This document shows, piece by piece, positions 4,783 to 7,718 of a stretch of DNA of 64,000 bases; position 1 is the first letter of the stretch; each line of letters begins with the position of its first letter. The stretch is from the NCBI GenBank assembly GCA_016839705.1, contig JAEOTR010000017.1, positions 32,001-96,000 of the forward strand, read 5' to 3'. The DNA is from Promethearchaeota archaeon (GTDB lineage: Archaea > Asgardarchaeota > Lokiarchaeia > Sigyniarchaeales > SOKP01). Both the position numbers and the translations under genes were made by a program. The notes under the pieces are model-generated. The model searched no databases, had not been told where the DNA came from, and was given only the letters and a program-made list of their open reading frames with translations.

Positions 4783-6441
4783 TTATTTTTTCTTCTTTTC
4801 CATTCGTTTCTTTAATGCAGTTGATGATATTCTTGCTCTTTTTTGACCTTTAGCGGCCCAAAAGCTTGATACGGGAGCTTGAGCTACTTCTCTTTCTTCC
4901 AATTCAATTTCTTCTAACTCATCTTCTAAATATGATAATCCCTCTGTAAAATCTTGTTCAGCAAATGTCCTGTTATTCGATTTTAATGATTTCATTTCAT
5001 TTAGAAGTTCAGCTCTCAAGGTTGTCAACTGTACTTTTGATTCTTGAGCTTTCCCAGAATAATATCCTCCCCCAGCAATTTGGATATTCTTCATGACATT
5101 AAATTTCTGATTATATTTAGATTTGAAATCATCCTCATCTTTAGTAACCCCAATCCTGTCGTTAATAACTCTCATCCTTTTATTTCCTTTCTTATCTAAG
5201 TACTCCACTTGTAGCTGTACAGGCACTTCTTCTTGTTCTTCTAATTCTTTAGCAGATTCTAATTCTAGAAATAATTCTCTATCTTCTGTAATTGCACCTA
5301 GAGTTATTTCTGATCCTTCTATCGCTCCTTTAGAGCTGTAAGCTCCAGATATGCTTTTAATTATAATTCGTGGTGGGACAATAACTCTTACTTTTACATC
5401 CCTCCCAATATACTCTTTTTGTCTAAGTTCGGAGAAAATTGCCTCCATCTCTTCACTTGAAATTAAATATAATGTCCCGCCTGTCGTATCAGTTAGTTTC
5501 CCCAATACTTGAAGTCCCATTTCATTATTATCACCTGAAGCAGACACCCCTACAACATCAACTATGATTTTATATTGATTACATGAATCAGCCATATCTT
5601 CATAAAACTTATTTGCTCCAGGACTTGTTCCTGATAAATTTCCAATCCCTTGATTGGCTAAACCGTCGGTTAAAAGAGTTATTCTTCCTGTTGAATTGAA
5701 AAATCCGAATGAAATAATGGCAAAATATAAAGCAGGCCCAAGTGCAGTCATATCCATTGATCTAAGGTCTTCGACTTTTTTGATCCAACCATCTGCGAAT
5801 TCACCAATAGAACCCAGAAATTTTTCTTTCTTTATTGCTTTTTTAAATTGAGACTTCATCCCTTCCAAAGTAAAGAGTATATCTCCACTAAAATTAATTG
5901 GATCTTTATCATGTCTTAAGTAATAGTACACAGTACTTTCAAAAGCTACCAAGATATATTTAGTTGTTGGTGAATTTATTTTAAAATCTTTTAGAGTTTG
6001 AATTAATGATTTTTTCACAGCTTCAATTTTAGCACCACTCATGCTTCCAGAGATATCAATAACTGAAATATACAAATCACCTTCAGTTTTAGATACCTTC
6101 ATTATTTCTGTTTCTTCTTTAGGTTTTTTCGCTTCTAAAGCTGATAGTAAATAATCAACATCATTTGGTAATTTTTTTGTTAATTTAGACTTATCTACGG
6201 AATTATCAGTTCCACAGAACTCGCATATATAGTAGGCACCTTTTTGAGGATCTTCTTTAATCATATCTACATCAGTAAAAACCGCGCCACAATTTTTACA
6301 TTTTATTGGCTCATCCTTTATTTCCCTCTTAGGGTTCCCTAATTCTTTAAAAGTTATTGAGTATAGATAAGGATATAACTCTTTTTTTGAAGGCTTTTTA
6401 GCGAGGAACTTGTTAAATGCTCTATCAAACATAGGTTTCAT
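4783..6441 (-). CDS. Sec23/Sec24-like Zn finger + vWA (trunk) + beta-sandwich protein
   Basis: PIKCKNC...YICEFCGTDN finger; VIDISGSM, TALGPAL, LLTDG, GKLTDTTGG vWA motifs; GRDVKVRV..P..I.IKSISG beta-barrel start. Confidence 0.78.
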   Translation of the reverse strand: MKPMFDRAFNKFLAKKPSKKELYPYLYSITFKELGNPKREIKDEPIKCKNCGAVFTDVDMIKEDPQKGAYYICEFCGTDNSVDKSKLTKKLPNDVDYLLSALEAKKPKEETEIMKVSKTEGDLYISVIDISGSMSGAKIEAVKKSLIQTLKDFKINSPTTKYILVAFESTVYYYLRHDKDPINFSGDILFTLEGMKSQFKKAIKKEKFLGSIGEFADGWIKKVEDLRSMDMTALGPALYFAIISFGFFNSTGRITLLTDGLANQGIGNLSGTSPGANKFYEDMADSCNQYKIIVDVVGVSASGDNNEMGLQVLGKLTDTTGGTLYLISSEEMEAIFSELRQKEYIGRDVKVRVIVPPRIIIKSISGAYSSKGAIEGSEITLGAITEDRELFLELESAKELEEQEEVPVQLQVEYLDKKGNKRMRVINDRIGVTKDEDDFKSKYNQKFNVMKNIQIAGGGYYSGKAQESKVQLTTLRAELLNEMKSLKSNNRTFAEQDFTEGLSYLEDELEEIELEEREVAQAPVSSFWAAKGQKRARISSTALKKRMEKKKK

Positions 6442-6545
6442 AAATTGAATTTTGAGAATGTAATAAAAACTGAATTATAAAAAATTATGGTTAATTTTTT
6501 AAAAAATTAAAAAAAAACCTTTATCCCGTGCCCCTTGCTGAGGTG

Positions 6546-6581
6546 TCTTCGGTCATCTCGCTTTTAATATGCCCGAATCAT
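6546..6581 (-). ncRNA. SECIS-like element (eukaryote-type AUGA...GA core)
   Basis: AUGA-UUCGGGCAUAUU-AAAAGC-GAGAUGACCGAA-GA: two 12-nt arms with 10 pairs, AA-rich loop 12 nt after core; GC-rich island directly 3' of a gene with in-frame UGA. Confidence 0.7.
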
Positions 6582-7108
6582 TCTTTATTGGGATTTTTAA
6601 TATTTTCATCTATAATTGATATCATCATTTCAATCGATGGTCGGTCTGTTTTATCTTTCCCAATATATTTCCATATAATTCTTCCTTCCTTGTTGATTAG
6701 AAATTTACTGGGGACAGCTTGTTTGATGTTTATTTTTTTTCCTGCACCTGGAGCAAACCAGTATACATCATACTCCTTTGCTATTTTTGCACCACGATCA
6801 GAGATTATATCAACAGTAAATTTATTTTCTTCTTTAAATTTCCTGAGAAGTCTAATACTGTCACTAGCTATCGATAAAAGTTTTATTCTTCGCTTTTTGA
6901 ATTTTGATAAATGCTCTGTTAGTAATGTCAAATGTTTTTTACAGTGAGTTCACCAATTCCCTCGGAAAAAATCTATTAATACGCCGTTAAATTCGTTGAG
7001 GAATTTACTTAAATTAATGGGATTATCATAGATATCCACTGTGTTTATTTGAGGTGCTTCTCTGTTTGTACTTATTCCTTTAGGTCTAGGTGGTTCATCA
7101 GCATTCAT
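6578..7108 (-). CDS. AhpC/TSA peroxiredoxin-like selenoprotein (Sec at TGA 6950-6952); joins track ORFs 6950..7213 and 6578..6931
   Basis: One continuous frame DFFRGNW-UGA-THCKKHL = UxxC at the FxRGxWCxxC site; downstream SD.....AKEYDV, AVPSKFLINKEGRIIWKYIG....DRP. Confidence 0.88.
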
Positions 7109-7199
7109 AATATTTAATTTAGTCCTATTAGATTTAAATAATATTATTATAATATGTAAAGAGTTGATGAAAATGAGAAATTTCTTTTCTTTACGTTTC

Positions 7200-7718
7200 T
7201 CAATACTTTTCAAAAAGATTTTCAGTCATAATATTGAATGCTCTTTCAACATTTTCCCCAGTTTTTGAAGATAACTCAATAAAATTAGAGAGGTTGTATT
7301 TTTTAGCAGCTAAAATGCCATCTTCTCTCGGGACTGCACGGAATTGATCTAAATCTTTTTTTGATCCAATTAGCATTATTGGGATGTCTCCAGCCTGTTC
7401 TCTTACAATTTGTGTCCAATCCGGCAAATGATCGATACTTCTCACATTTGTAATATCATAAAGAAAAAATGCTCCATTTGCTCCTTTACAATATTGAGAA
7501 AGGAGAAATCTAAATCTTTCTTCACCCCCAAAATCCCACATTTGCAATTTTACTTTTTTTCCATTGAAAAGAGTTGTTTTAGAATAAAAATCTACGCCAA
7601 TTGTTAATTTCAAATCCTGCATGAAGTATCCAGAAATATATCTTAAGGTGAGGGACGTTTTCCCGACAGATGCATCTCCCAACATCATCAATTTAAATGT
7701 ATAATCGTAATCTGTCAT
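7200..7718 (-). CDS. Rab-like small GTPase
   Basis: YDYTFKLMMLGDASVGKTSL, TIGVDF, KLQMWDFGGEERFR, GSKKD, LSSKTGENVE. Confidence 0.95.
   Translation of the reverse strand: MTDYDYTFKLMMLGDASVGKTSLTLRYISGYFMQDLKLTIGVDFYSKTTLFNGKKVKLQMWDFGGEERFRFLLSQYCKGANGAFFLYDITNVRSIDHLPDWTQIVREQAGDIPIMLIGSKKDLDQFRAVPREDGILAAKKYNLSNFIELSSKTGENVERAFNIMTENLFEKY

Follow-up and report, generated by a model that had tools for sequence, protein, structure and literature searches.

A probable lokiSECIS-type hairpin whose AUGA core contains the stop codon of a Lokiarchaeal PrxL selenoprotein gene

The closest known counterparts of the structure considered here are the lokiSECIS elements described in the main text of Mariotti 2016 (PMC4989117). 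As presented there, they consist of an AUGA, a stem of 9 bp, an A-rich loop of 11 nt whose last G is ultraconserved and usually follows an A, and a GA, and they lie right after the coding sequences of PrxL, VhuU and HdrA-VhuD genes. The same text reports an AUGA that doubles as the stop codon in VhuU.1, argues from a minimal distance that a UGA so near the SECIS is not recodable, and notes that SBP2 is not known in these archaea. The text of a later survey (Huang, Xiao and Zhang 2024, PMC11227280) defines an Asgard eSECIS-like type I by a GA_[G/A]A core, an upper stem of 7-15 bp with at most two mismatches and an apical loop of 8-20 nt, and according to it the UGA stops of Lokiarchaeia "often overlap" the AUGA motif. 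An overlap between stop codon and SECIS core is, in other words, already a published phenomenon.

The window, the whole stretch of DNA analysed here, is 64 kb long and comes from a Lokiarchaeum-family genome. On its minus strand it carries a gene for a Prx-like (PrxL) selenoprotein, followed at its very end by the element of interest. A sequence-only reading of this region had proposed a hairpin with eukaryote-style SECIS geometry whose AUGA contains the gene's own stop codon, together with a second, mutually exclusive hairpin and a regulatory role for the overlap. All the letters on which that proposal drew are present on the minus strand, namely AUGA, 12 nt, AAAAGC, 12 nt and GA, as well as a second AUGA at 6556-6553, CCG at 6552-6550 and CGG-GA at 6528-6524. 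The start assigned to the element, 6581, has to be moved, since the structure begins inside the coding sequence at 6594. The features of the locus are as follows.

7108-6578, minus strand: Prx-like (PrxL) selenoprotein gene, 176 codons when translated with TGA as U, ending at the stop UGA 6580-6578
6952-6950, minus strand: recoded Sec UGA, U52 of the product and first position of W-U-T-H-C, 371 nt upstream of the SECIS core
6594-6590, minus strand: 5' strand of helix I (the lower helix), AUCCC, within the last codons of PrxL; minimum-free-energy (MFE) fold, pair probabilities 0.9-1.0
6583-6578, minus strand: G-N-AUGA, with G(-3) at 6583 and the core AUGA at 6581-6578, of which UGA 6580-6578 is the PrxL stop
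6577-6569, minus strand: 5' strand of SECIS helix II, 9 nt; RNAalifold consensus and compensatory changes
6568-6557, minus strand: apical loop of 12 nt, with AAAAGC at 6565-6560 and ending in AG; sequence and 71 orthologs
6556-6548, minus strand: 3' strand of SECIS helix II, 9 nt, pairing with the 5' arm save for one G6572.A6553 mismatch
6547-6545, minus strand: GA-C, the 3' side of the core; 70 of 71 orthologs have GA here and one has AA, with A60 and C61 of the alignment invariant
6543-6531, minus strand: small 3' hairpin CCUC-AGCAA-GGGG; MFE fold, 86.2% of cells paired in 71 orthologs
6527-6523, minus strand: 3' strand of helix I, GGGAU, which includes the CGG-GA previously assigned to the alternative fold
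6517-6509, minus strand: T9 run directly after the element, from its sequence a likely archaeal transcription terminator

Two neighbouring open frames of the minus strand, 7213-6950 and 6931-6578, fuse into one gene once the TGA at 6952-6950 is taken as Sec, and it is at this codon that gene callers break the PrxL gene. Judging from the N-termini of orthologs, translation probably starts at the ATG at 7108-7106. The product has the thioredoxin-fold AhpC/TSA domain of PrxL proteins (Pfam AhpC-TSA, PF00578, E 3.3e-21; Redoxin, E 4.8e-16) and their U/C-x-x-C/U redox box, here W-U-T-H-C. PrxL orthologs with 58-78% identity were found across 90 genomes of the same order. A TGA occupies the redox Sec position in every one of 71 orthologs (58 UxxC and 13 UxxU), and the suggestion that one UGA of this gene is recoded is supported by this conservation, the codon in question being that of the W-U-x-x-C box. 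The window genome also holds the Sec machinery, with tRNA-Sec on contig C18, SepSecS on contig C87 and a Sec-containing SelD on contig C5.

PrxL lies between a Ras-family GTPase gene (7718-7200) and a gene for a Sec23/24-like vWA protein (6441-4783), in DNA with a G+C content of ~30%, a setting indicative of an Asgard genome. Together with an ORF resembling CPBP-type membrane proteases (8506-7871), these make up four co-directional minus-strand genes spanning 8506-4783. PrxL appears to be the last gene of its transcript, to judge by the T9 run behind the SECIS; a terminator role for this run is assumed from what is known of archaeal oligo-T termination. A run of at least five T begins 20-39 nt past the core GA in 67 of the 71 orthologs. 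In many relatives (L004, L005, L032, L034, L046 and L049), PrxL genes occur as tandem pairs, a UxxC copy being followed ~200 nt downstream by a UxxU copy with two Sec, and each copy comes with a separate SECIS. At its PrxL locus, the window genome carries the UxxC copy alone. Two-Sec PrxL is itself already known, as PrxL.1 in the main text of Mariotti 2016 (PMC4989117).

The comparative evidence comes from a sample of 71 distinct PrxL elements of relatives. A first search with a single protein had returned eight orthologs along with unrelated bacterial redoxins, and a broader genome search was used instead. A covariance model, R1, was built from 48 orthologous elements of other genomes, with the window left out. 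It matched the window at 6516-6605 on the minus strand with 69.6 bits (E 2.4e-15), far beyond chance, and over the 64 kb of the window no further match was obtained below E=1. In the same genome, R1 also picked out the elements that follow SelD, PrxL2 and two VhuD genes, and it matched all 30 of the 30 VhuD loci of relatives. In the 71 orthologs, the main helix is recovered by RNAalifold, and seven of its eight predicted pairs show compensatory changes. When the full nine-pair helix II is considered, compensatory changes affect eight of the nine pairs, with 88.7% of cells paired. The three-helix structure as a whole is paired in 82.8% of cells, compared with 26-50% when the partners are slid, and its covariation score is 0.417 versus 0.234 in shuffled alignments, none of 500 reaching the observed value. 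The model match and the compensatory changes bear out the earlier view that this is a eukaryote-style SECIS of a selenoprotein gene. On these comparisons, the hairpin is very probably a SECIS of the eukaryote-like "lokiSECIS" type for Lokiarchaeal PrxL mRNA, with the stop/core overlap as a by-product. It would occupy the extreme 3' end of the transcript, and would direct the UGA at 6952-6950, 371 nt upstream, to be read as Sec.

G23, A25, T26, G27 and A28 of the alignment, which correspond to G(-3) and the AUGA, do not vary in the 71 sequences, and the closing U-A of helix II and the AAA of the loop are likewise invariant across PrxL elements. All 71 orthologs end the apical loop with G, which follows an A in 63 of them; the loop measures 11 nt in 61 orthologs and 12 nt in 10. 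The window element departs slightly from the consensus through its 12-nt loop, its A run, which begins at loop position 4, and the one G.A in helix II. Two orthologs (L066 and L080) that a pattern search had missed were found by the covariance model; one has two stem mismatches and the other an AGGA. The latter (L080:803-890) has AGGA as its core instead of AUGA, keeps the GA, and is otherwise intact (55.8 bits).

A strict pattern scan of the whole genome yielded 15 hairpins, compared with 2-5 in six Markov-simulated genomes. Among these matches, the loops are cleanest after SelD, after two VhuD genes, after a small protein with two adjacent Sec, and after a PrxL paralog and the PrxL of the window. 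Further hairpins fell within ordinary coding regions (C23, C25, C42, C50, C70 and C82) and were rejected as false positives, there being no in-frame UGA upstream of them; they are treated as chance, in line with the 2-5 matches per simulated genome. In single-sequence folding, the window element is no more stable than its shuffles (z = -0.14); such thermodynamics alone is not significant, and the support for the element is comparative. An Rfam scan of 6000-7400 at E<=10 matched no SECIS family, in agreement with the published report that standard SECIS tools miss Loki elements. The scan did return C/D-box snoRNA families at 6511-6639 on the minus strand (19-24 bits, E 6-10), across the end of the gene and the SECIS, which were treated as chance matches far below their gathering scores; they are probably due to UGAUGA-like and kink-turn-like words.

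Several of the other selenoprotein loci of this genome deserve a description of their own. On contig C13 (69409-69990; L015/L088) there is a second PrxL (UxxC) gene, split into two frames by a frameshift or an assembly error, with a full three-helix SECIS (52.9 bits) after its TAA and a core UGA that is out of frame. Contig C73 (~86760-87360; L090:1752-1840) encodes a protein of ~170 aa with two adjacent Sec (...A-D-U-U-A-D...), whose SECIS lies three codons past the stop and scores 24 bits with the PrxL-trained model. The SelD SECIS on contig C5 (~4702-4615; L087:1139-1225) is a simple type I element with a 9-bp helix and an 11-nt loop, scoring 54.5 bits with the PrxL model. In the texts of PMC4989117 and PMC11227280, Loki SPS/selD elements are described as mainly of a distinct type II.

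An architecture wider than the AUGA/GA hairpin itself emerges alike from the MFE fold of the RNA in the window and from the alignment of orthologs: it consists of helix I, helix II and the small hairpin, followed by the T9 run. The junction closed by helix I (6594-6590/6527-6523) encloses the AUGA/GA core together with the 9-bp SECIS helix and the small 3' hairpin. All eight helix I columns vary on both sides in the orthologs, and helix I and the small hairpin, taken alone, beat both the shuffles (0/500) and the slid controls. Support for these two parts is more modest than for helix II. For helix I, this is because MAFFT misaligns some rows: in the alignment used (A1), which was left without hand-editing, its pairing is lowered to 73.8% through misalignment of the lower helix in rows with shifted stops. 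The 30 VhuD loci lend independent support: they share the layout, their helix I has another sequence, 86.7% of cells pair, and both-sided changes occur at 20 of 22 pairs, in an alignment that was fitted to the model and hence leans towards the structure. The small hairpin recurs in the SelD, VhuD and PrxL2 elements of the same genome and in the 30 VhuD loci.

The core of this junction may form a kink-turn, which in eukaryotic SECIS elements has tandem sheared G.A pairs and is bound by an L7Ae-domain protein (SBP2). Its sequence is compatible with one, having the invariant G(-3), a 3-nt N-A-U bulge, GA opposite GA, and the invariant C; these invariant bases presumably supply what a standard kink-turn needs, which is tandem G.A, a bulge of 3 nt and a G-C pair to close it. 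The bases G(-3) (6583) and C (6545), invariant in the 71 PrxL elements, also occur in the VhuD, SelD and two-Sec-protein elements. These two could pair with each other and so close a canonical kink-turn that has a 3-nt bulge. In full, the element would then be a junction of three helices. Its lower helix would pair the last codons with the bases that immediately precede the T-tract terminator; its other parts would be the kink-turn-like core, in which G-N-AUGA faces GA-C, the SECIS helix, and the small 3' hairpin. The identity of the element, its conservation, its covariation and the spread of stop positions are read from the data, and from these patterns we infer that it is active in Sec insertion, that its core has kink-turn geometry and that translation ends at the core UGA. 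A further proposal, which we advance tentatively and hold to be somewhat doubtful, is that the functional Loki SECIS is not the simple AUGA-stem-loop-GA hairpin of earlier descriptions but a three-helix junction common to PrxL, VhuD and SelD, in which the small hairpin may serve as a second protein-contact site that takes over part of the eukaryotic role of SBP2.

The core UGA at 6580-6578 is the first in-frame stop of PrxL, and in this genome the same triplet is thus stop and SECIS core at once, as had been proposed. The comparison of orthologs that the sequence-only reading had called for shows how common this is. The core UGA itself is the stop in eight of the 71; in 36 the gene is terminated by a TAA or TAG that lies exactly 6 nt upstream of the core and in frame with it, and in the remaining 27 by other upstream stops, 9-24 nt before the core. 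The window has AAA at 6586-6584, where most relatives carry TAA, and the other orthologs with the overlap have TAT, ATA, GAA, AAA or TTT at the same codon. On a maximum-likelihood protein tree, the eight overlap rows need seven changes, at least six of which are forced by well-supported branches, and they are no more clustered than shuffled labels.

Since some seven separate changes are needed, the overlap is best described as a derived and recurrent state. Its scattered distribution indicates that the primary stop has been lost repeatedly, with the in-frame core UGA ending the protein two residues later. In the window genome, the TAA 6 nt before the core UGA would have become AAA (6586-6584), so that translation would run two codons further and halt at the core UGA, which would be too near the SECIS for recoding. 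The overlap is very probably a by-product that is tolerated because the SECIS is packed tightly against the end of the gene. It appears to be a recurrent, neutral accident and not a regulatory device. The idea of a designed feature fares poorly against these data, with an overlap in so few and such scattered orthologs and with most of them stopping at a TAA or TAG 6-24 nt upstream.

A different explanation is that selection keeps the core UGA in frame as a fail-safe tandem stop, such that loss or read-through of the primary TAA adds just two residues. The core UGA is indeed in frame with the gene in 50 of the 71 orthologs, the exact layout of stop, one codon and UGA recurs in 36, and the primary stop has been lost about 6-7 times in genes that are otherwise intact. 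Against these counts stand the 21 orthologs with the core out of frame, whose stops lie at -10, -14, -16 or -17. Moreover, the in-frame cases come largely from one related group and the counts are therefore not independent, and the spacing is constrained by the lower helix in the last codons as well. Selection for a tandem stop is for these reasons unlikely, and a tolerated by-product of tight packing remains the preferred account of the overlap.

The regulatory model put forward for this locus combined the stop/core overlap with the second hairpin. According to it, ribosomes terminating at the core would melt the SECIS and tune Sec insertion. If true, a regulatory stop built into the SECIS core would constitute a new layer of recoding control; the comparative data point elsewhere. 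All the sequence elements that it invokes exist, and a ribosome halted at 6580-6578 would have to unwind the core physically. The melting, however, does not depend on the overlap. In every ortholog the stop lies within or beside the lower helix, which makes unwinding at termination generic to these elements; ribosomes at the usual TAA 6 nt upstream would also unwind the lower helix and the core. Considering ribosome footprint sizes, a terminating ribosome would open the element whether or not its stop is the core UGA.

The second hairpin, AUGA-CCG...CGG-GA, does not rescue this model. Its AUGA (6556-6553) arises from the same substitution as the G.A mismatch of helix II (6572/6553) and is found at this position in only two of the 71 orthologs. 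The CCG/CGG stem pairs in 71% of cells, a value that 322 of 500 shuffles reach, and over the 71 orthologs it has no excess covariation. The alternative fold has a free energy of -5.3 kcal/mol and the best structure containing it -8.1, compared with -15.1 for the conserved structure, and its pair probabilities are near 0. Furthermore, its bases are those of conserved helices: the CCUC/GGGG in its upper part makes up the conserved small hairpin, and the CGG is part of helix I. Classification as an RNA switch with mutually exclusive folds was rejected, the alternative being neither covarying nor energetically competitive (9.8 kcal/mol worse). Regulation by the combined overlap and second fold is very improbable in view of the 8 orthologs, out of 71, that have the overlap and the 2 that have the second AUGA.

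The frame does stay open past the stop, for 18 codons up to the TAA at 6523-6521, and the organism decodes UGA as Sec elsewhere, which might suggest that the terminal UGA is sometimes decoded to give a C-terminal Sec with an 18-residue tail. As a reading of the letters, the open frame stands; as a coding sequence, it is excluded by an upstream stop in 63 of the 71 orthologs. The read-through tails vary in length and sequence among three of the overlap orthologs (the window, L001 and L008), and substitutions in the tail region track RNA pairing and not codons. In addition, this UGA is inside the SECIS core, where the minimal UGA-SECIS distance given in the main text of PMC4989117 applies. Decoding of the terminal UGA is highly improbable on these grounds. 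That the hairpins are nothing but a 3'-end or terminator structure unrelated to Sec, as the T9 run directly after them and the location at the transcript end in all orthologs might suggest, is hardly credible, given that an element of this architecture, its AUGA...GA-C invariant and its loop A-rich, also lies behind the unrelated SelD, VhuD, two-adjacent-Sec protein and PrxL2 genes of this genome, and that the 64-kb window has one significant model match.

The element at the end of PrxL is a real and well-supported SECIS, and its kind, its selenoprotein family and its quirk are all known already. The first interpretation was partly correct: it was right about the identity of the element and about the dual role of the UGA in this genome, and wrong about the switch. 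Correct annotation matters here because the class of this element links archaeal and eukaryotic selenocysteine decoding. The sole detail that may be new is the conserved lower helix with the small 3' hairpin, a description of which was not found in the running text of the published lokiSECIS papers, figures and supplements aside; it could guide searches for the archaeal SECIS-binding protein.

Among the known systems, the euryarchaeal SECIS of Methanococcus and Methanopyrus shares with the window element a 3'-UTR location near the stop of an archaeal selenoprotein gene. It differs in architecture, as the covariation-supported structure of the window lacks the asymmetric GAA_A bulge that separates a GC-rich lower stem of ~10 bp from a GC upper stem of 3 bp. 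Resemblance to the eukaryotic type I SECIS (Rfam SECIS_1) is closer and includes the 3'-UTR location, the AUGA/GA core, unpaired A's of the apical loop ~10-12 nt from the core, and a lower helix with an internal loop. Unlike that type, the window element has a shorter helix II (9 bp) and an extra hairpin on the 3' side of the internal loop, and the Rfam covariance models of eukaryotic SECIS do not recognise it even at E<=10.

The Asgard eSECIS-like type I is a model that the window element fits, and prxL is among the five widespread families surveyed according to the text of PMC11227280. AUGA lies 5' of the stem and GA 3' of it, the nine stem positions comprise eight standard pairs and one G.A, and the A-rich loop, which ends in AG, falls within 8-20 nt while departing from the strict 11-nt form. 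The element is located just past a coding sequence with an in-frame UGA at the catalytic Cys position, in a genome with Sec machinery, and it is recognised by the profile of orthologous elements. The text of that survey reports no conserved lower-stem or internal-loop nucleotides across families and describes no internal-loop hairpin, whereas here both the lower helix and the 3' hairpin are conserved in PrxL, VhuD and SelD.

The lokiSECIS itself, as described in the main text of PMC4989117, is the nearest match. Differences lie in the loop, which measures 12 nt in the window and not 11, in one stem mismatch, and in the overlap, which concerns PrxL here and VhuU there; the lower helix and the small 3' hairpin of the window element do not figure in that main text. 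What the two have in common is the AUGA before a 9-bp stem, the A-rich loop ending in (A)G, the GA, the place after the coding sequence and the PrxL host with its UxxC box.
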